A stretch of 20,000 nt of DNA from Alloascoidea hylecoeti (GCA_001600815.1 BCKZ01000002.1:1729582-1749581); one strand, 5' to 3'. Shown: positions 4,655 through 17,016, numbered from the stretch's first letter. Numbers and translations are program-made. The notes: generated from the letters alone by a model not told the origin.

Positions 4655-5526
4655 ATGTCAAGTATTCGTGATTTAATAAACAATCCTGAGGTATTTATTA
4701 ATAAATTTTCATCTTTTTATAGTAGTATATAACTAATTTGCCTTGTTTTGATATTAGGATTCTATTCCAACTAATACTGATATTCATAATGATTCCTCCA
4801 TTCAAATCTCAAATATATCATTACATCCTGAATCACAGGATATAAATGTTCAGTCTAATAATACTATCAATTCGGAACCTCAATCTCAATTACAACCTAA
4901 TGACTTTCAAAATCAAAATATAATAACACCAACACCTGTTACACCTGCTGATGATCTAGGTATAAATTTACAATCACAACAACCTATTTTATATTCTCAA
5001 GTTTCAATACCTTCATCGAATCAGATAGCATCTGTAAAAAACACGTCAATATTCTCAAATGTATCAAACTTAAATTCAAATCCAACTTCAAATCCAACTT
5101 CAAATAATTCTTCAAGAAATTCAACACCAAATATAGAATCCCATAATCATACACCAAATCCTCATCAACATCATAATCATGGTAATCATACAAAAGATAA
5201 TGTTAAATTTCCAACAAAATTACCTGATGTCCCACCAAATGAAAAAGCTTCGGATTTAATTGGTGGTGCTAATGTTAGAAGATGGTTAAATGAAAAAGTA
5301 ACTCCTTCGTTATTAGAAGGAATGAGAATGATTGCAAAAGAAAAGTATGTTCATTTATTTATTTATTTATTTATTTAAATCATAAGTATTAACCTTTTGT
5401 TTTAGACCTGACAAACCTTTAGAAATGCTTGGGAAATTCTTTATGGAAAAAAGTAAACTTCTAGAAAGTGAGAATGAAAATGACATACAAATGAATGAAA
5501 ATGAAAATGAAGAGGAAAATAATTAA
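4655..5526 (+). CDS. SDC1: COMPASS (Set1C) subunit Sdc1/Dpy-30; exons 4655-4690, 4758-5344, 5406-5526, 247 aa
   Basis: The spliced product contains the Dpy-30 motif IGGANVRRWLNEKVTPSLLEGMRMIAKEK|PDKPLEMLGKFFMEKS after a long N/S/Q/P-rich N-terminus. Intron 1 is 4691-4757 (GTATTT...AACTAAT...TAG); intron 2 is 5345-5405 (GTATGT...TATTAAC...TAG). Frames join without stops. Exon 1 is less certain than exons 2-3. Confidence 0.88.
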
Positions 5527-7201
5527 AAATAAAATTATTAGAAAGTAATTTGACTCTGACTCAAATTTAAAATCATAATTTATTAATATAGCATACCTTT
5601 ACATCTTTCTTAATACTGATTCAAATCGATAGCATTCAAATTCAAAATATTTGTAATTGATTGTCATTGTACAGCTAGAGGTATAATAACCATCAATTCC
5701 TAATTTAAGATGTAAATAAAAAAAACTCACTAAATCAATTGTAGGAATTATTAATGATTTTGCTTTGGATTTAACATTTAATTCATTTGTATCAATTTTA
5801 AATATCTTGAATTTTCATTTTCTGTATAATTTGCATAATTACTGTATTATGACGAAAATATCCCAAGGACTTGAAGGGAAGTAGAATGCTTTATGTAGTT
5901 TTCTAAGGACATTTATCCCCAGCCTGAATTCGTCATATTGTAGAAACATTTTCGTCGTTTTCGTATGTGTATTTGAAATTTCATAATTACGTCACAATAC
6001 TCGACATTCACTGAAGCCAAATAACGAAAACTAGGTCACTCCGTAAACTAAATATGAGTTTCAATGTACCAAAAATACACAAAAGTGATAAAACTGTCTT
6101 TCCAATGTGGCAAATTCAATCTCGTGAAACTGTAATGCTTTAATATAAAAGTTTATGCTTTGAAATTGGTAATATTGTATAAAATTATAGTATTGAATAT
6201 TATGAGAGTGAACTTATGTGTATATTACGATTCATAGTTAAATATAAGATACTACCGTATACGTAATTATAGGTTATCCAAACATTCAAAATGGGAATGA
6301 CTTAAAGTACATAAGTTAGTACTCTCATAAATCTAATTAAAGGCCTCTTACAAAGGTTGTATGTGTGGAAACGTGGGATGGCTCCTTTTTTCTACAATTA
6401 GGATCTCCAATCACCATATACAATGAATTACGTCCTTCTTTCCAAATTTTAATCCATACCATAAGACTCACAGACCAATAATTCCCTATACTATAAATAG
6501 TTTTCGATTCAAAGGCTTAGTGTTACGGTTGTGGACCATACAATTTTCCAGATTCTGATGATCCCGACCTAACATTCGCCACTATATAAAACACCATCCA
6601 GATCCCAAATGCTATTAGATCACTCCAATATATATTTATGCAATACCATTCTATTCATTTGGTTCTTCTCACTTAGGTAAGACCAATTACCCGACGGAAA
6701 TATTACATATTCATGTATTTACAGAAGGAATCTTAGGTGGTATTTGATATTCGAATGCTGAAGTTTGAAGCCATATATATACGCACAGATCAAATATTTC
6801 AATCCACTTAGTTGGTTGCAATTACTTTCTAGAAGTGGAATTGTCTGAAATACTGCTTAAGGGTCTACTTTAAATAGCTATATTACTTCAATTATAATAT
6901 ATTTAATCGTATAATGGAGGTATACATTCACATTAGACACAATATCTACGTACAGAATATGAAGGAAATATTTACAACTTTTCAATTAATATATATATAG
7001 AACCATGATCTATCATCATTATAGCTTCACCTATCTACAATTTTATATCATATCAATATCAATTTATAAGTGATAATAATAATATTCACAAATGCATATT
7101 CATACACTGTGTGAACTTATTAATCATGATTTGGAGAACAACTACATTTGCAATCGTAATTGTATTTTATTAATTTATTAAATATATATTAATATTGAAA
7201 T

Positions 7202-7756
7202 CTAATTATATAATTTTAAACCACTCTTGCACGGCTGGTTATTGATACAATCCCGTTTATGTTTCGTTAACATGTGTGATGTCGCATATGTAAAACCACA
7301 CCGTGAACAACTGTAAGGTAACAGTCCAAGATGTATACTNTGGAAGTGATTCCGTAATGATTTTTGGCCCTTGAATTGTCTCTCACATCTCTCACAATTA
7401 AATTTTTCTTCTGAAGTAATCAAAAAAGAATTATCTTTTGAAACCGGTTTGGGTCCAACTGGAGCAGTTTCATTATCACTATCAATATGAACTGGGGTCT
7501 GACTATTATTATCTACATCCTCACTGTTGATATTGTGAATACTGTATGTTTCTTTAACTACAGTTCCTGGATCTTTTGGTTCCTCTAGTTCCTCTGGCTC
7601 ATCTGTCGTTTCTGACTCTTCTAGATCGTCTAACTTCTCTGGCTCTTCTGGTGCTGGAAGATCACCTCTATAAGCAGCAAGGAATTCTTCTAAATGCTCT
7701 CTAGCGTAAATGCTTTGTTCGTATGGGAGTCCCCCAAGTGGTCTATTATCATTCAT
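7202..7756 (-). CDS. C2H2-type zinc-finger protein with acidic N-terminus, copy A (184 aa)
   Basis: Finger 1 FNCERCERQFKGQKSLRNHFxSIH (Cx2Cx12Hx4H), linker LGLLPY (TGEKPY-like), finger 2 SCSRCGFTYATSHMLTKHKRDC (Cx2Cx12Hx3C). The N at 7340 is the third base of the Gln codon. Confidence 0.75.
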   Translation of the reverse strand: MNDNRPLGGLPYEQSIYAREHLEEFLAAYRGDLPAPEEPEKLDDLEESETTDEPEELEEPKDPGTVVKETYSIHNINSEDVDNNSQTPVHIDSDNETAPVGPKPVSKDNSFLITSEEKFNCERCERQFKGQKSLRNHFXSIHLGLLPYSCSRCGFTYATSHMLTKHKRDCINNQPCKSGLKLYN

Positions 7757-8194
7757 TTTATATAGTGTTGGTAATAAAATTAATTATAGTGAGCGATGAG
7801 GAAAAGAGAAAAAGAGCAGATGGCCCTTTAAGTCGGAAAACTTTCATGTCCCTTCCTTATTAGTCTGATGCTGATACTCCAAATTACTTATAACATCACC
7901 ATTTNGGTAATTACAGTGGAAAGAGCTAGTGTTTAATAAAGAAATAAAAACACACAAATATATGCATATGCATGTACACACTTACTAGATGTGGAAACTG
8001 CTTTTATTTCTTTATTAAACACTAGCTCTTTCCACTGTAATTACCNAAATGGTGATGTTATAAGTAATTTGGAGTATCAGCATCAGACTAATAAGGAAGG
8101 GACATGAAAGTTTTCCGACTTAAAGGGCCATCTGCTCTTTTTCTCTTTTCCTCATCGCTCACTATAATTAATTTTATTACCAACACTATATAAA

Positions 8195-8749
8195 ATGAAT
8201 GATAATAGACCACTTGGGGGACTCCCATACGAACAAAGCATTTACGCTAGAGAGCATTTAGAAGAATTCCTTGCTGCTTATAGAGGTGATCTTCCAGCAC
8301 CAGAAGAGCCAGAGAAGTTAGACGATCTAGAAGAGTCAGAAACGACAGATGAGCCAGAGGAACTAGAGGAACCAAAAGATCCAGGAACTGTAGTTAAAGA
8401 AACATACAGTATTCACAATATCAACAGTGAGGATGTAGATAATAATAGTCAGACCCCAGTTCATATTGATAGTGATAATGAAACTGCTCCAGTTGGACCC
8501 AAACCGGTTTCAAAAGATAATTCTTTTTTGATTACTTCAGAAGAAAAATTTAATTGTGAGAGATGTGAGAGACAATTCAAGGGCCAAAAATCATTACGGA
8601 ATCACTTCCAAAGTATACATCTTGGACTGTTACCTTACAGTTGTTCACGGTGTGGTTTTACATATGCGACATCACACATGTTAACGAAACATAAACGGGA
8701 TTGTATCAATAACCAGCCGTGCAAGAGTGGTTTAAAATTATATAATTAG
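8195..8749 (+). CDS. C2H2-type zinc-finger protein with acidic N-terminus, copy B (184 aa), identical to copy A
   Basis: Same fingers as copy A; A-rich start context (TATAAAATG). Confidence 0.8.
   Translation: MNDNRPLGGLPYEQSIYAREHLEEFLAAYRGDLPAPEEPEKLDDLEESETTDEPEELEEPKDPGTVVKETYSIHNINSEDVDNNSQTPVHIDSDNETAPVGPKPVSKDNSFLITSEEKFNCERCERQFKGQKSLRNHFQSIHLGLLPYSCSRCGFTYATSHMLTKHKRDCINNQPCKSGLKLYN
8300..8389 (+). repeat. Degenerate 9-bp coding minisatellite (about 10 units, consensus CCAGAAGAG), mirrored at 7562-7651
   Basis: Units ccagaagag/ccagagaag/ttagacgat/ctagaagag/tcagaaacg/acagatgag/ccagaggaa/ctagaggaa/ccaaaagat/ccaggaact encode PEE-PEK-LDD-LEE-SET-TDE-PEE-LEE-PKD-PGT. Confidence 0.7.
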
Positions 8750-9662
8750 ATTTCAATATTAATATATATTTAATAAATTAATAAAATACAAATACTAACA
8801 TTTCTTTTATCCATTATGCCATTAATTGGCGCTTGTTGGATACAACATCTTCCACCATAAATCTGGAACCCGAAGATTGAAAATGAATCTACAAGTACTA
8901 GTGAGGGTACTCAACCACAATGATCTCCTGCGAAAGAGGAATAATTCATCGCTGATGATGATATTGAAAAACAATTACAAAATTCATAAGTTGCATGCAG
9001 TTGTTTAACATGTAAAAGATTGTGATCATGATATTGATGGAAGTTTTACTCATAAATAACGGGAAATTTTGCTCAAAGAATAATTTCTGAAAGAATATAG
9101 ACGTGTCAGAAAATGGCAGATATTTAATTTGATTTGCTATGCTTAAATAAATCCATTTCTTTGATATGTTACTTAAAATATCTTCCATATTTATACGTTT
9201 ATTTATGGCTTACATAGTACAAGTTGGGAATCTTAAAATTGAAGCAGAAGATATCTAGAAATATTAGAAAAAATTAACATGTTGTAATAAATCATTTAAT
9301 ATATGGCAAATAATTGTGCTATACCATTAGCAAGGACTATAATCTCATCCAATTGTTGAAAACGTAGTGTACCGGTACGCGTTGCTTCCTTTTTGCTGAT
9401 TGAATATAAATGGTTGTAATTATGCAAAACTAAGATGGTACAACGGTGCTAGCAGCGAAAAAATATTGGCGGAGAAAGAGGGAGTATGGTGGAACAACAT
9501 ATGCTACATCTCGTCCTTAAAGCCTCTTATCAGATAAATAGATTAAGACAAATAGATAAACTTCCATTTACTAACCTTATCTCACTTTCTCATATTAATC
9601 TATCAACTCACATATAAACTACACATAAGTAACTTACATTAAAAACTTTTGAGCATTAAAGA

Positions 9663-11693
9663 TTAACTATAAATTGGAACACTAATGGAATCTTTACCAA
9701 GTACAATAAGGTTCAATTTGTTATCAATGATTAAAGTTTGAAAATATTTAGGATTATAGTCCACTAATGGATTATTTAAACTAATAAATTTCCATTTTTT
9801 AGCTTCAATGTCATAAAGCATCAAATATTTAAAGCTTTTCCTATCCAATATTTGAATATTTGGATCAAAGATAGCTTCAAGGTAAAATTGAACTTTTATT
9901 GCTACATTATTATTATTCCAGAAATATGGATCAACTGTCATTTCGATTATATCAAAATTAGGATACTTAATGTTTATTATAGATTGAAGAATATCAATTG
10001 TAGGAGTTTCAACTATGGCCTTCCAAGCACAATGATCGTGATTATTACCATAATAACCATTGGAATCTATTTTATTTGAAGTGATATATCTTGAAGTATC
10101 AACGTCAACTTTTAAATGTTGATCATTATCAATGTTATTATCAATCATATTTAGGAAATTTATCACTGAAGTCCATAATAGTTGAAAGTCATCAATACGA
10201 CAAACATTATTAAAGAATTCGTCATCTAAAATTTTCCAGTTATAATGGATTTTGAACAAATTTGATCCAATCATGATAATCTGGGGGGTAAGGAGATGAG
10301 TATTCATTTGATGCCTTTCATACCAGGACATCCGAAATGTTCGTATCCTATATTCTGATACTCTTTGGTCGTAGTTGATTTTATATTTACCCATGTATTC
10401 TCCATTGGGAGTTTTAAACACTAACCAATAGTAAATGTCCACAGTTTGAATATCATAAACATTAAAAGAGTGCACTCTGACTGGTACTAGAGTATAAAAA
10501 TCGGATATTTGGATTTTAAAAAAAGTGGGAATTGATAAACTGTCAAAAATAAGTAGATTTAGATTCTCTTCAATATTGTATCGCAATTGTATTGTAGCTT
10601 TCCACACCATCGATGATTGTAATTGATCATGAGATACATGAACGTCAGCGATACTGGTCTTCTTATAGCACTTTATAACTATAGGCATATATTTTCCACT
10701 ATTATCCCCTAGATGATCGATTGAGATTAAATACTTTCCTGAAGTGATATCATTAATTTTTAAGAATTTTTCAGGTGTGAATAAGTTACTACGTCTGATT
10801 GCACAATCCCTCATTGTTTTTCTTTTTCTTCTTTTATAAAGTAAGTTAAATAATATAGGATCATAAAACTTTTTATCAAAATTCTTAGGTATATTTAAAT
10901 ATAACTGTTCAGAAAAATTGACAGGCAATATCCAATTGCTAGTTCTAGAACTATCTTTAACTTCAGTTGAAATAACATTTTCCCAATTGAATTGATGTAA
11001 TGGTTTATTAATTATTGCTGACGTTTGGGGGTATTTTGTACATAAGTTATTGACCAATTTTTTCGATTTTAAAATTGATTTTGTGTCTTGCTGAAAATAA
11101 ATATTTGACTGATTCTTGCAAACTGGTGAACACAATGGAATTATTTGAACCACACATTCATCATCAGGATGACGATCTTGTTCTATAATAGTTGTATCAG
11201 TAATTGTATTTTCAACTGAAGAAAATTTTAAAAGTCCAACAGGTGCAAAGTCTAGAAGAAATAAATCATTATATTCTACTTCATTTAGCAGAGTAAAAAA
11301 GTTCAGATACCTATTTTCGAAATCACTATCAAAGTCACTATATTCATGAACAATCTGATTTTGCCATAGCGAGAAAGCTGCCTTGCCATTTTCAATTATT
11401 TTAAAGCTTGGTTCTTCAAGTAAATCACAATTAAACAGATTCACAGTTTTAACAGGTTCATTGATCAAACTCTGGATCATTTTGTTTTGTTTGTATTTTA
11501 ATGATTTGATGCTCTTTCTTTGATTCCCTTTTGTGAGTGAATCCATTATAACAGCTGCATATTGCTCATTATAGTTCTGATTATAATAGGTGAAGAACAA
11601 ATTACATGTCTTGAACAATCTGAGGGCATCGACCGGAGAAAGATGCTCTGCGATGAGAATAATGACATCTCGAGGAAGGTCTACCAATTTCAT
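9663..11693 (-). CDS. F-box domain protein, 676 aa, divergent C-terminus
   Basis: Long uninterrupted ORF. N-terminal LVDLPRDVIILIAEHLSPVDALRLFKTCNLF fits the F-box pattern LxxLPxEIxxxIxxxLxxxDxxxLxxxC. Basic KRRKRK patch. Confidence 0.8.
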   Translation of the reverse strand: MKLVDLPRDVIILIAEHLSPVDALRLFKTCNLFFTYYNQNYNEQYAAVIMDSLTKGNQRKSIKSLKYKQNKMIQSLINEPVKTVNLFNCDLLEEPSFKIIENGKAAFSLWQNQIVHEYSDFDSDFENRYLNFFTLLNEVEYNDLFLLDFAPVGLLKFSSVENTITDTTIIEQDRHPDDECVVQIIPLCSPVCKNQSNIYFQQDTKSILKSKKLVNNLCTKYPQTSAIINKPLHQFNWENVISTEVKDSSRTSNWILPVNFSEQLYLNIPKNFDKKFYDPILFNLLYKRRKRKTMRDCAIRRSNLFTPEKFLKINDITSGKYLISIDHLGDNSGKYMPIVIKCYKKTSIADVHVSHDQLQSSMVWKATIQLRYNIEENLNLLIFDSLSIPTFFKIQISDFYTLVPVRVHSFNVYDIQTVDIYYWLVFKTPNGEYMGKYKINYDQRVSEYRIRTFRMSWYERHQMNTHLLTPQIIMIGSNLFKIHYNWKILDDEFFNNVCRIDDFQLLWTSVINFLNMIDNNIDNDQHLKVDVDTSRYITSNKIDSNGYYGNNHDHCAWKAIVETPTIDILQSIINIKYPNFDIIEMTVDPYFWNNNNVAIKVQFYLEAIFDPNIQILDRKSFKYLMLYDIEAKKWKFISLNNPLVDYNPKYFQTLIIDNKLNLIVLGKDSISVPIYS

Positions 11694-11800: not shown

Positions 11801-12400
11801 TTATACGATTTCTGGGCATTGCCTCAAATCCGGATCCTCGGTCTTAATTATAAACTCCTGATGTTTGTAATTATCATTAAAGAAAATCTTCATATCAATG
11901 TATAATATTGGATTATGTATGATAAGCTTTAAATTCTTGAATAAGATTTTTTCAGGGGGCTCCTTAAAAGCATACATTGATTTCTTTGGTGTAGTGGTTT
12001 TTAACGTTGTCTGGAGCGATAAGAACCACCAACCCATATTCACTTCATTTTCTATTTTCATTAAAACTTTTCACTAAAACTCTTGTAGTGAATTATCTTT
12101 ACTGATTTCATTGATTGGGGCGATAATTTCATGATCAACTATACTAATTATACAAATTATAAGAATGTTAATAGTACTTCTAAACTAGGTAAACATAGCA
12201 AAGATCAATATCCAAACATATAATCAATTGAATATCGAATATCTTCCAAAAACGGGAATGGATATGCTATTTACTGGATCATTTCATAGATTCAAATTCC
12301 CCCTTTAATCAGATATCATCATTCAAAATACATCAAATTTTCCAAATGTTCCAAATCTAAATTTGAATATTAATTTCTTCTAATGAAATGGAAGAAATTC
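11801..12400 (-). pseudogene. Possible decayed protein-coding gene with LRR-like fragments
   Basis: The 86-aa ORF continues upstream in frame across two adjacent stops (IVDHEIIAPINEISKDNSLQEF**KVL-MKIENE). Further upstream are stop/frameshift-broken fragments ISLEEINIQI, NLDLEHLENLMYFE, FPFLEDIRYS and LCLPSLEVLL. Confidence 0.3.
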
Positions 12401-14382
12401 AACTTCAAATACACATTTACATAATTATTACTATGCATAGTATCTTAATTCTAATAATTTTTATTTGTGTAAAAGCTGAGCGTTCTTCTACAATTTAGCG
12501 TATTGATCTCAGAGTTAACGTCCACCAACTCCATTGAACGATTTTGCCGTTTTATTTCTTAATACTACTTAAGGGGTCTCTTTTTGTTCTGCTTTTAAGT
12601 TCACTTATAAAGCACTCAATTTGCTTACAGTTCAGTATGATCACCTTTTCAAATTCCATTTGATTCAATAAAGCTTACCCACACCTCATTAGAGTAAATT
12701 ATTTAAGGGTCAAGTGCCTGGAATGACTTTTATCAAACATATCCTCTTTGTGATAGTCGAATATCTTACCGTTTCCGGCACGACATGGGAACACTTTAAT
12801 CTATATTTAGTTAGTATCCATCATCTAGATTCTTCTCAATTACGTAACAGTCGTTATATGTCGATAATGCTCCATATTCACGTTTTGCATAATTCATCTT
12901 TTGGGTGGTATGCTGGTGAATATAATTACACTTTCAGCTGATTGATATCAATTCTATTCAAGATTAAGGGTAAACTTTTACATTTGATTTTGATTTCCTG
13001 CCTTTCCTGCTACTCAGACCGGATTAAGATATTCTGATAATCCTTAACTTTTTAATAGTTAGATTGGCTACTATTTCTCGAAAGTAGGCCCTTTGGTTCA
13101 TTACAAATTGATTTTGTTAATAGGCGGGAAACTATTTAAAAGAATGTCAATTGGCGTTGAAGAAGATGAATCTTTATAAGTATTTATTGATAATTAATCG
13201 TATTTATCAGTTCAAACCACGGTCTTTACACACCATATACAAGACCTTGAACTTTTCTTAAGATATACTAGATGTTATATTTCTTTTGTTTGGTACTACT
13301 TATTTTTTACTTTCTAAGCCAATAAAATGCAGGTTTTGAAATAAGCTTTTAGTTTCGAATTTTAACCCACCAAAAACATTACCAAATATATATTTAACTT
13401 TACACTCAAAAAGTTTTAAAGTTATAATATAAGCTTATACTTCAAAGATATGTCCGAATTCTGCAAAAGCAAAAAACAAACCAATTCGGTAGATCTTTTC
13501 CTCGTCATTATACCGAATCACAGAGAATAAGATGATAAAATCCCGTAGATTTTGTTATAGAAACTAAAAAATGAATGAAAAAATTAAAATCATTACTCTC
13601 GAATTTTAAAGAATTCTTTCCGAATTAGTCTGATGATTTATTACCAGAATAAAATGAATTAGATAAATGAAGAGCTAACGGTGATGTAACCCAAACGGAG
13701 TAGTTAAGAAAAAACAAAGAAATAGAGAATCAAAACATTTAAGCCCAGTAGTTAATGATCTGGTTTAAGTTTTCATTCAAATAATCCTCATTTAAATAAT
13801 GGTCAATCAAGTTAGTTCTGCAGAGTAGCTGTTAACTATAGTAAATCCTGGAATGGTATTCCGGGTCACTGCCATTTGATCGTATGAAAAGTACCGGTTA
13901 TTTTTATCGGGGTCATAAACGGCTCGTCGTATAATTAGGCATGACCCGACCAAAAATTTTCCCATAGTAAATAAGCGGGCTGCACAAAATGCGTGCACAA
14001 AATGGCAAAATGGTACGGGTCATATTGTCAATCTTATACCGGTACACTTTAAAATAATATAATAATCTATATAACTTCTATAAAGATATAATTTAAAAGA
14101 AGAATTAATCTTTGATTGCTGAAAGCTTATGTTCAATCTAAATTATGATCTTAGAAAATGGCATGCAATTAAAGGATAAAGTATTTTCAGCACACATAGA
14201 TTCTTACCATATATTTCAATTGTGTGGAACGTTTATGAGTCAAGAAGATCAAATCCTACAGAATAATTAAATAATTAGATTTAAATTTATACCACTCAAA
14301 TAAATATCTTTAGTGTATAGTTATTTAATTATACAGAAGCCAATATTTTTACTCATAAGTTCCACCTCAAAGGCTCCCAATT

Positions 14383-17016
14383 TCAAAAGTTATTTTTCAA
14401 CATTCTTTCTATAGAAGGAGTACCAAAGTCAATAACTGTCAGATCTTCCCGTAGTATAAATTCTTTATTACGGACGCTGAAATCCACAACGGTCTCTAAC
14501 TTACGCGTCCTCAAAGGAATCATATAAATCATATCCTTATAAACCTTTAGTAATTCAGATGTAGACCAATAAATATAAGCACATTTACCTGGTGCTCTAG
14601 GCCTGTAGACTGGTAAGTATGGGTGGGTGAACCTTTTTAAAAGCTTACCAGTAGTGATTCTATAGACCATTAATCTATTTGTATAGACCATTAATCGATA
14701 ATCATAGCTTGTGATTCCGACCACCATCATATCATCGTTAAAATTCAATGATTGAATATAATAAAATATTGGCTCAATACGATTTTCTCTATTATAGTCT
14801 TTAATTTCAGAAAGAGATATAGACCAATGATAAAATAACTTTGCCCCAGAAGAATATAGTTTCCAAATACACATACTTATGTTCTTGTGAAATCCATTAT
14901 GATCACGATGAATCTTCTCTCTCAATTCGTAGAGTTTTCCTTTAAACGATTTAAAAGCCAAAATTTGACCAGCGGATTTAAACTTCAAATAAGAAATAGG
15001 ATAGTTAGCTGGAAATTGAGGGACAATGTTTAAGTTTAAAAATTGATCCGGACAATTAGTTGATCTTTCTGATGTATCAAAATTATAACTTTCATCATAA
15101 TTATAAAGATGTCTAAACTCTAATTGTTCACGGGCCCGTAATTTATTATTAGTTTCAAGTACCACCGGTATCTCTGTTGGAATTCCTGCCTTTAGGGTCC
15201 GGGGATTTAATTCTATGGCCACTCTTCTATCATACCAGATAATATCATATTTTCTTACTCGAAGGATGATTGCTAGAACTACATTTTCTAATTCGAAACA
15301 ATCTTGATAATAATTGTTCGTTTCTTCAATTTCAACATTAAGAATGGTCTCGCTACATTCAGGGGGGACAGAAATTAATTCCTTAAAATCATAAAGAGTT
15401 GTCGTGACTTCTCCTGTTGGTAAATGTATAATTTTAAAATCTGTTTCATGGCCATCTAATAATGCAAAGTCGGAGTTTTTACTTAATCGCCGTAATCTGT
15501 ATGATGCTAGATCCGAAGTTGTATAATGAGGTATTCCTGGGTAATAATTTTTCCTCTGCAACACCACATTATTATCATCATCATAATAACCATTATCATA
15601 ATCATAGTCATTACCAAAGTCATTTCCATTTCCATTTCCATTATTATCATTATTATTACCATTGTCATTGCCGTTATTATCATTATCATCATCGCTTTCT
15701 TCGTATGCATCATAAAAAGGTGTTTCGGGAGTGTAACATGTATTCTGATATATAATGTCCCTTAAATTTCCAGGAATGTTAGATATATCACTATGCTTGA
15801 CATATTCAAATCTAAGTTGTTCAACTTTCTCATCGGAGTGAACAAATGTGATTTTTCGATTACTAGGGTCCAGTAAACAATCCTCAATATGAACATGGCT
15901 ATTAAGAATCCAATAATCAACCGATTCTAATTTATCAGGATTTGTGATCTTCCATTGTTGAAGAAAGTCGACCATATATGGAGATATTATTGTACTCATA
16001 TATGTGATATCGATTGGAGTTTTCAATTCATCATCAATATTTCTCGACTTCAATCGATCATGAATATCATAACTTATCTCAACTTTAATTAAGGAAACTG
16101 CTATTGAATGGAATAATATGATATAGTCTCCTTTTGCACGGATATTAAATAGGAACCAGTCTGCTTCTGTCATTTTAGTTGAAAATCTTTCCACTGGATC
16201 GGTCTCATTATTGTCACCTAAGCCATTCACTTTTTCTATTTTTTTTTTGTAGAATTCTGTATTATTCAAATTAAATTCTTTAATTATATTAAAACTACCA
16301 GAGAATTGTAAAGTATTATCAAATATAATAACTTCCGTCGTCTCATTATTATATCTTAAAATAAATTCTCCACAATCCAGGGTTACGAACCTATAAGTCC
16401 AATACTCTTTGATATTCTTATCTTGCTTCTGTAAGGAAACGATATTGGAAACCGTAGCAGTAGGATTAGCTAAATTTAAAGTTAATAGTCTTTTAGATAA
16501 TTTTTTATAGCTCATATTATACTTATAATCATCGAATACTTTGGTGATGAGAAAAGAATTTTGATATAACTGTACATATTCTTGTGTTTTATTATTGACA
16601 ATTCTATTATATTCCAAGAATAATTTGTAACCGAAGCCATTTTTAATGAGACAAACGATTTTGTCATAAGCGTTTTTCAAGCGTCTACGCTTTCCAATTA
16701 CACCATTTAAATTTAAATTACTGTGCATTTTAGTTTTGAGTGTACCAGTAAATTTACTCATCCTTTCAATGGTAGCCACTAGCCATAGTTTGTACTTTTT
16801 CCGTTCTGAAGGAGATAAGACTAGTTTCCAAAATCCGGATTGATTAATATGGTTGTACCAATAACGAGATACGTCTTGAGTCTGTTTGAGTTCTAACAAT
16901 GATCCTTGATCAACTATATGACTAAATATTTCGACTAAAACTTCTGGTGGGAAAACCCTCATTGGATCCCTTCTGTTTGGTAATCGTAATAACTCTAAAT
17001 TAGTATTATGATCCAT
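14383..17016 (-). CDS. F-box domain protein, 877 aa, with possible degenerate WD40-like C-terminal region
   Basis: Long uninterrupted ORF. N-terminal DPMRVFPPEVLVEIFSHI...QDVSRYWYNHINQSGFWK matches an F-box. KRRRLK patch, D/N-rich tract, and WD-like segments DFKIIHLPTGEVTTTL and IQSLNFNDDMMVVG...RLMVYRITTGKLLKRF. Confidence 0.82.
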   Translation of the reverse strand: MDHNTNLELLRLPNRRDPMRVFPPEVLVEIFSHIVDQGSLLELKQTQDVSRYWYNHINQSGFWKLVLSPSERKKYKLWLVATIERMSKFTGTLKTKMHSNLNLNGVIGKRRRLKNAYDKIVCLIKNGFGYKLFLEYNRIVNNKTQEYVQLYQNSFLITKVFDDYKYNMSYKKLSKRLLTLNLANPTATVSNIVSLQKQDKNIKEYWTYRFVTLDCGEFILRYNNETTEVIIFDNTLQFSGSFNIIKEFNLNNTEFYKKKIEKVNGLGDNNETDPVERFSTKMTEADWFLFNIRAKGDYIILFHSIAVSLIKVEISYDIHDRLKSRNIDDELKTPIDITYMSTIISPYMVDFLQQWKITNPDKLESVDYWILNSHVHIEDCLLDPSNRKITFVHSDEKVEQLRFEYVKHSDISNIPGNLRDIIYQNTCYTPETPFYDAYEESDDDNDNNGNDNGNNNDNNGNGNGNDFGNDYDYDNGYYDDDNNVVLQRKNYYPGIPHYTTSDLASYRLRRLSKNSDFALLDGHETDFKIIHLPTGEVTTTLYDFKELISVPPECSETILNVEIEETNNYYQDCFELENVVLAIILRVRKYDIIWYDRRVAIELNPRTLKAGIPTEIPVVLETNNKLRAREQLEFRHLYNYDESYNFDTSERSTNCPDQFLNLNIVPQFPANYPISYLKFKSAGQILAFKSFKGKLYELREKIHRDHNGFHKNISMCIWKLYSSGAKLFYHWSISLSEIKDYNRENRIEPIFYYIQSLNFNDDMMVVGITSYDYRLMVYTNRLMVYRITTGKLLKRFTHPYLPVYRPRAPGKCAYIYWSTSELLKVYKDMIYMIPLRTRKLETVVDFSVRNKEFILREDLTVIDFGTPSIERMLKNNF
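15568..15695 (-). repeat. Trinucleotide-like low-complexity tract encoding a D/N/G-rich linker of the 877-aa F-box protein
   Basis: ATT/ATC/TCC repeats on the + strand encode DDDNDNNGNDNGNNNDNNGNGNGNDFGNDYDYDNGYYDDDNN on the - strand. Confidence 0.85.

Follow-up and report, generated by a model that had tools for sequence, protein, structure and literature searches.

Inverted pairs of paralogous genes have been described in Caenorhabditis as divergent genes of up to 100% identity whose intergenic regions comprise short arms and a spacer; several pairs occur in one family, and gene conversion was proposed to act on them (PMC1803023). A similar arrangement is found in a 20,000-nucleotide stretch of DNA from Alloascoidea hylecoeti (GCA_001600815.1, BCKZ01000002.1:1729582-1749581; the window, meaning the whole stretch analysed), where two zinc-finger genes lie head-to-head in 790-bp inverted arms around a 52-bp spacer. 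The first Caenorhabditis example has 446 bp of intergenic DNA with a 126-bp spacer, compared with 438 bp and 52 bp here, and the worm pairs are proven to be old because three species share orthologous structures, whereas our palindrome comes from one genome only, has a budding-yeast host and has a shorter spacer (PMC1803023). Paralogous genes in highly identical inverted arms, in genomic DNA, are present at our locus, which by analogy may work like the conversion-maintained pairs of Caenorhabditis. We read it as a genuine local inverted duplication on which gene conversion between the arms acts, and give this reading a probability of roughly 0.68.

The palindromes of the primate X and Y chromosomes have far larger arms and lie on sex chromosomes. 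Conversion holds their gene-bearing arms above 99% identity (PMC8981503, PMC3723533); set against them, our palindrome shows no rise in GC content. The vsp pairs of Giardia resemble it in having identical open reading frames (ORFs) head-to-head or tail-to-tail, abrupt flank ends and several pairs per genome, but their ORFs are 2.2–3.8 kb apart, encode surface antigens, and were interpreted in the original study as products of recent duplication (PMC2996952). The large-loop foldbacks of S. cerevisiae share with it a loop of at least 15 nt and, probably, a second junction at homology or microhomology; they are, however, rearrangements selected in the laboratory, in most cases resolved at dispersed repeats, whereas ours is a natural 790-bp copy that would have rejoined locally (PMC7467729, PMC10622511). 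In another budding yeast, Komagataella phaffii, the centromeres have inverted arms that are virtually identical and recombine naturally with each other, although those arms are ~2 kb long and untranscribed around a 1-kb Cse4-bound core, in contrast to the coding arms and 52-bp core seen here (PMC5010909). No report of natural conversion-maintained gene palindromes in budding yeast was found in a literature search that left most subscription papers and bioRxiv supplements outside its reach.

The original prediction, made from the sequence alone, placed two head-to-head zinc-finger genes in 790-bp inverted arms around a 52-bp spacer, and this is confirmed by comparison of the arms and by contigs from sequencing runs (coordinates in Table 1). 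As a control, 20 shuffled versions of the stretch gave longest exact inverted matches of 13–18 bp. Each arm comprises the complete 184-residue ORF, 193 bp upstream and 42 bp downstream, 555 of its 790 bases being coding. The called bases of the two arms have zero mismatches, and the only non-matches are N7340, whose mirror 8611 is A, and the mirror pair N7905/N8046. The claim that the arms are identical apart from Ns therefore stands for the called bases, but probably understates the real differences, given a G at 8611 in one run (X3, below) and the excess of Ns in the arms. The shared promoter was correctly given as 438 bp between the two ATGs, but is not mirror-symmetric throughout, its central 52-bp spacer being asymmetric. 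Similarity was also said to decay at the outer junction; instead it stops abruptly, with one mismatch (7159/8792), three further matches and then 26–46% identity per 100 columns. The spacer shows no special folding (z = 0.21), and scans of the palindrome found no tRNA or Rfam feature inside it.

The window forms the final 20 kb of contig C2 in a genome of 24.8 Mb and 136 contigs, and has a GC content of ~30%. Its TDA3-like protein is, along most of its length, 51–67% identical to proteins of named budding yeasts and lacks a close named relative, from which we conclude that the host belongs to the Saccharomycotina and sits on a long branch. Sequencing runs that contain the stretch derive from one organism and from wood-decay and insect metagenomes, and none of those listed is an RNA data set. 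Read evidence comes from contigs of four of the 12 matching runs (X1, X2, X3 and X6, the first three from three studies); these are assembled contigs, not long reads, and no single molecule spans the palindrome. X2 represents another strain, since it differs from the stretch by seven substitutions and one insertion in ~3,380 flank bases.

In X1, X2 and X3 alike, the left-flank contig ends at 7185–7189 (depth 6.7, 10.9 and 21.4, respectively), a single arm contig starts at 8002 (13.6, 19.1 and 46.6), a 112-bp spacer contig covers 7920–8031 with both its ends in the arm start (7, 3.2 and 28.7), and the right-flank contig begins at 8762–8766 (7.59, 7.54 and 20.9). The ratio of arm depth to the mean of the two flank contigs is 1.9, 2.1 and 2.2, contig depth being a poor measure of copy number. 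X6 gives only 151-bp pieces at the locus, too thin for judgement. The contigs thus bear out two real copies, with the spacer joined to both arms and each arm to its own flank; the order flank–arm–spacer–arm–flank is well supported, and the contig data leave the orientation of the spacer free. One copy written twice by the assembler would account for the Ns in the arms, and the evidence does come from contigs rather than long reads, with X1 and X2 flagged as possible sources of the assembly. Nevertheless, an arm depth twice that of the flanks, with flanks and spacer attached as predicted in all three runs covering the locus, including the other strain, makes such an artefact very improbable.

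The clearest signs of conversion come from other inverted pairs in the genome. Five further near-identical, gene-bearing pairs were found (B, C, E, F and G), and arm-to-arm conversion is clear from the sequences of B, C and F. Pair B, 47 kb from the palindrome, carries paralogous zinc fingers in arms separated by a single mismatch and two pairs of Ns. A relic of SDC1, the Dpy-30 gene, lies at the end of both arms; compared between the arms it is 113/114 identical inside the repeat and 186/261 (71%) outside it, and each of its two copies is 69–76% identical to true SDC1 throughout. A single recent duplication cannot give 113/114 beside 186/261, and pair B must therefore be an old pair overwritten from one arm. 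Its long QN repeat tracts also match between the arms. Pair C, whose right arm reaches into the window, is a mosaic in which stretches that match at 150/150 surround others at 85/128 and 94/139. The right gene of this pair is broken, lacking the N-terminus and having one stop and one frameshift, and the 587-aa copy has no Pfam match. In pair F the N-termini of the two alcohol dehydrogenases (ADHs) are unrelated (cytosolic-type and presequence-type), and all 10 mismatches lie within 32 bp of one end of the core or 120 bp of the other. The spacer of pair E contains a copia gag relic.

At the palindrome itself, conversion is suggested by a single edge base in the second strain. The arm contig of X2 is 794 bp long and runs to 8795, while the flank contigs of this run are shorter by 4 bp, which implies that the edge mismatch 7159/8792 is absent in X2. 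From the contig ends and letter counts the change would lie at 8792, although the base was not read directly. In five copies of the gene family whose remnant begins at this junction, position 8792 has the base of the stretch in three, the other base in one and a gap in one. The X2 base is most simply a correction templated from the left arm; we estimate the chance of such a match at a few in 1,000, from a strain distance of 0.2%.

Hidden differences between the arms are probably marked by the Ns. Single Ns occur 13 times in the 10,044 bases of arms that are near-identical and 44 times in 705,716 other bases, making them ~20 times denser in the arms; 35 of those 44 sit in two clusters on C5. 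These clusters (C5:311351-311428 and C5:336805-337175) are dense and perhaps represent collapsed repeats. The arm Ns probably denote one or two differences that the assembler could not place, and if so the palindrome arms would be ~99.7% alike. The 8611 A/G variant falls at a third codon position and is synonymous.

The original prediction left a choice between a very recent duplication and a palindrome kept homogeneous by conversion. Conversion is borne out at pairs B, C and F, and at the palindrome the choice stays between both. A young neutral duplication that has not had time to diverge would need no conversion here, and several observations weigh on its side against the reading we prefer. 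The palindrome ends abruptly, has no diverged or fossil outer homology and no mosaic, and its own sequence gives no sign of age; its one or two differences in 790 bp are close to the strain distance in the flanks (7 in ~3,380 bp, X2); and the clustering of mismatches at arm ends seen in pairs B and F is absent from it, as from pair E. The X2 edge base may be the original state, with the history reversed, and word, profile, metagenome and HMMER searches found no orthologous locus in another species. On the other hand, the palindrome predates the split of the two strains, the X2 base fits a templated correction, the gene remnant truncated by the right arm has four stops in 68 codons (though it may have been dead earlier), and pairs with much longer spacers in the same genome are converted. 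We therefore consider a young, unconverted duplication rather unlikely, and favour a duplication subject to conversion.

Comparison of the flanks suggests which arm is the newcomer. An intact SDC1 gene is convergent to the left zinc-finger copy, and SDC1 relics are convergent to the family copies in pair B and to one copy on C38 (C38a), which indicates that the left copy lies at the ancestral locus of the family. SDC1 has a long low-complexity middle, and its relics are scattered together with the zinc-finger family. On the other side, the right arm abuts a decayed, front-truncated membrane-protein gene belonging to a dispersed family, other copies of which extend upstream where the stretch has the right arm; the front half of the gene is absent left of the palindrome. 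The right arm thus appears to be the newcomer that replaced the front of this gene. On C38 a gene of the membrane family is divergent from a family zinc finger ~2 kb away, and by analogy the right arm may have overwritten ~2–3 kb, including that front part. A fold-back transposon or an inverted-repeat centromere would also present long terminal inverted repeats, and such centromeres exist in yeasts (PMC5010909). Both are highly improbable at this locus: the flanks share no direct repeat that could be a target-site duplication, the arm DNA matches only the palindrome locus in the genome, the left side holds no second half of an interrupted gene, and the coding content and short core differ from the K. 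phaffii centromere as described above.

The junctions have the anatomy expected from fold-back priming across a large loop and subsequent rejoining at microhomology. The 52-nt loop falls among large-loop fold-back inversions, those of at least 15 nt, a class with a median loop of 36 nt that arises when MRE11 and SAE2 function (PMC7467729), and a foldback with a 35-bp spacer was seen in wild type (PMC10622511). At the second junction, microhomology of 9 bases in 10 is combined with the front-truncated remnant. The proposed origin by fold-back or template switching fits these features (loop, microhomology, truncated remnant), although it is inferred rather than shown. Breakage or fork stalling immediately upstream of the left gene may have freed a 3' end that folded back over the 52-nt loop and copied 790 bases through the gene; synthesis would then have rejoined the chromosome at the 10-base microhomology, overwriting the intervening DNA. 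Yeast genetics suggests that a 52-nt loop would escape MRX-Sae2, so that the palindrome could survive. Occasional breaks or template switches might then be repaired from the other arm, holding the arms at ~99.7% and perhaps letting homology creep outward. The outcome would be two promoters and one protein, with at most a doubled dose; the palindrome is not a switch, because flipping the spacer would leave the product unchanged.

The fragility attributed to the palindrome through Mre11-Sae2 was overstated. In S. cerevisiae, MRX/Sae2 attacked spacers of up to 8 bp, repeats became less fragile as the spacer grew, and perfect palindromes under divergent transcription suffered additional, Mus81-dependent breaks (PMC8053094); a review records no fork stalling in eukaryotic cells at inverted Alus 52 bp apart (PMC7999016). 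Persistence requires no special defect, since a 52-bp loop lies outside the range attacked by MRX-Sae2 and fragility falls with spacer length. MRE11 is present in the genome. A family search of the genome gave no SAE2 candidate; a motif search gave a SAE2/CtIP candidate, a coiled-coil ORF of at least 567 residues on C8 (~109.8–111.5 kb, minus strand), with a Pfam E-value of 0.036, below the cut-off, and a match covering only the last, C-terminal motif. Loss of SAE2 as a cause is unsupported in view of this weak, diverged candidate. A palindromic duplication of the Sae2/Mre11-deficient type was likewise rejected, as the loop is 52 nt against <15 nt and both MRE11 and the SAE2 candidate are present. 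A survey of 1,154 yeast genomes records SAE2 as missing from 72 species (PMC12629084); the gene is not mentioned in PMC7145719.

The 184-residue protein is a putative transcription factor, with two predicted fingers and an acidic segment (residues 19–100, 26 Asp/Glu against 5 Lys/Arg). The Pfam zf-C2H2 family (PF00096) matches the right copy in two stretches at 26.8 bits, against a cut-off of 25.2. The first finger is of C2H2 type (C121, C124, H137, H142), and the second ends in cysteine (C150, C153, H166, C170). The family has two copies at the palindrome, two at C2:1.688-1.690 Mb, two on C38 and one on C37, and as far as searches reach it appears confined to this genome. A word search for orthologues returned, among 48 candidates, one match, the palindrome protein itself; a family-profile search matched 3 of 3,642, namely the palindrome protein, a 196-residue protein of the same length as the C38 paralog, and one multi-finger animal protein. 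None of 67 pattern matches in metagenome contigs was an orthologue, nor was any of the best 150 HMMER matches, 148 of which are larger multi-stretch proteins, and an Atlas lookup of the protein leads to generic C2H2 clusters. A match on C10 was rejected as an unrelated conventional finger protein. GC content at third codon positions is 0.27 in the palindrome gene, compared with a genome sample median of 0.23 (10–90% range 0.12–0.30), and gives no signal of GC-biased conversion.

It could be argued that the palindrome is kept by selection for doubled, co-regulated expression of a regulator, and that the family is twice palindromic for that reason. At two of its five loci the genes are indeed paired head-to-head, their ORFs intact and the junctions of the two pairs unlike, and the finger region of three paralogs (pair B and C38 copies) is under constraint, with a ratio of nonsynonymous to synonymous substitution rates (dN/dS) of 0.13–0.37. 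These figures come from other copies, however; dS between the palindrome gene and its paralogs is saturated, making dN/dS uninformative for the palindrome gene. Conversion also covers pseudogene DNA (the SDC1 relic of pair B and the broken F-box-type copy of pair C), so that homogeneity needs no selection, and both zinc-finger palindromes lie within one duplication-rich region of 90 kb. We judge a selected device improbable, and retain arm-to-arm conversion as the preferred explanation.

The further pairs were reached by different routes: B through the zinc-finger protein, C by its position, F and G through a scan for ADH_N, in which 4 of 43 matches lie in inverted pairs, and E through a sample of blocks. 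That sample, 12 position-chosen blocks of 50 kb, contained one pair of at least 400 bp and at least 95% identity within 10 kb, together with two smaller ones of 105 and 140 bp. One pair per 600 kb would extrapolate to ~40 per genome, an estimate for this yeast alone and with a very wide margin. Inverted pairs as such are not rare, since 19% of 469 tandem arrays in nine yeasts are in opposite orientation (PMC2822764). Spacers of the natural pairs in this genome measure 52, 134, 692, 1392, 5134 and 5788 bp. It is possible, though we hold it as doubtful, that the formation and retention of gene-bearing palindromes is routine in this lineage, with perhaps tens in each genome. Large-loop fold-back would then be the usual way in which genes are duplicated locally, and conversion would keep the arms together, helped by weakened hairpin processing, of which the highly diverged SAE2 candidate might be a sign.

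If so, no natural case would be tighter than the 52-bp pair, and standing concerted evolution like that of Y chromosomes would be available in a culturable budding yeast. Long inverted repeats of budding yeasts have mostly been studied as engineered fragile sites, whereas natural ones of various spacers and ages occur here in one genome; the head-to-head promoters are of the kind that raises Mus81-dependent breakage in S. cerevisiae (PMC8053094). If the arms exchange sequence, conversion rate and tract length could be measured against spacer length in a yeast. A caution also follows: identity between yeast paralogs in an inverted pair is no proof of recent origin. The palindrome is of more interest as part of a genome-wide habit; as a single locus it is a modest finding.

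Table 1. Features of the palindrome, its surroundings and related inverted pairs (window positions unless a contig, C, is named)
Feature	Coordinates	Strand or arrangement	Remarks
Left arm	7160-7949, 790 bp	no strand	Probable original copy
Spacer (loop), unique	7950-8001, 52 bp	no strand	Own 112-bp contig in X1, X2, X3
Right arm	8002-8791, 790 bp	no strand	Single arm contig in X1, X2, X3; probable newer copy
Zinc-finger ORF, left copy, 184 aa	7202-7756	minus	One codon contains N7340
Zinc-finger ORF, right copy, 184 aa	8195-8749	plus	Pfam zf-C2H2
N7340	7340	no strand	Mirror 8611 is A in stretch, X1, X2; G in X3; probable arm difference
Mirror N pair	7905 and 8046	no strand	Probable unphased arm difference
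Outer junction microhomology	8786-8795	no strand	9/10 bases common to mirror of 7156-7165; mismatch at 8792
Membrane-protein gene remnant, decayed, front-truncated	8786-9210	plus	68-76% to copies on C42, C83, C19, C8
SDC1/Dpy-30 gene, 247 aa, two introns, intact	4655-5526	plus	Only Dpy-30 match in genome
Dispersed repeat, ~450 bp	6321-6773	no strand	Between SDC1 and left arm; dozens of copies at ~65-80%
Pair C right arm, outer end	1-316	plus	Mosaic identity
Pair B	C2:1687221-1691018	head-to-head	1832-bp arms, 134-bp spacer, paralogous 307-aa zinc fingers
Pair C	C2:1725568-1729897	inverted	F-box-type genes, spacer 1392
Pair E	C1:1224016-1231729	head-to-head	374-aa dehydrogenases, 1290 bp at 99.8%, 5134-bp spacer
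Pair F	C17	tail-to-tail	ADHs of 351 and 400 aa, 1040-bp core at 99.0%
Pair G	C17, between pair F ADHs	head-to-head	63-aa cysteine-rich metallothionein-like genes, arms ~657 bp at 98%, spacer 692

Several smaller features accompany these elements. Pairs F and G, with a ~170-bp non-coding pair at ~89%, make three inverted repeats in 9 kb (C17:429801-439000), and arms of 116 bp at 99% with a 124-bp spacer but no clear gene lie at C2:1662556-1662911. The dispersed repeat between SDC1 and the left arm shows no clear long terminal repeat ends. Repeats of ~90 bp, 90–97% identical and in both orientations, occur at C38:87921-90189, C37:47159-50723 and C7:3642-12773 and are possible transposon ends; those on C37 and C38 are not tRNAs by ARAGORN. 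Within the window, relics of both the MEMO1-like gene and SDC1 at 12093-12428 form an inverted copy of the right flank of pair B. Two large, lineage-specific F-box-like genes with weak Pfam matches occupy 9663-11693 and 14383-17016, and a relic of the latter adjoins a family zinc finger on C38.

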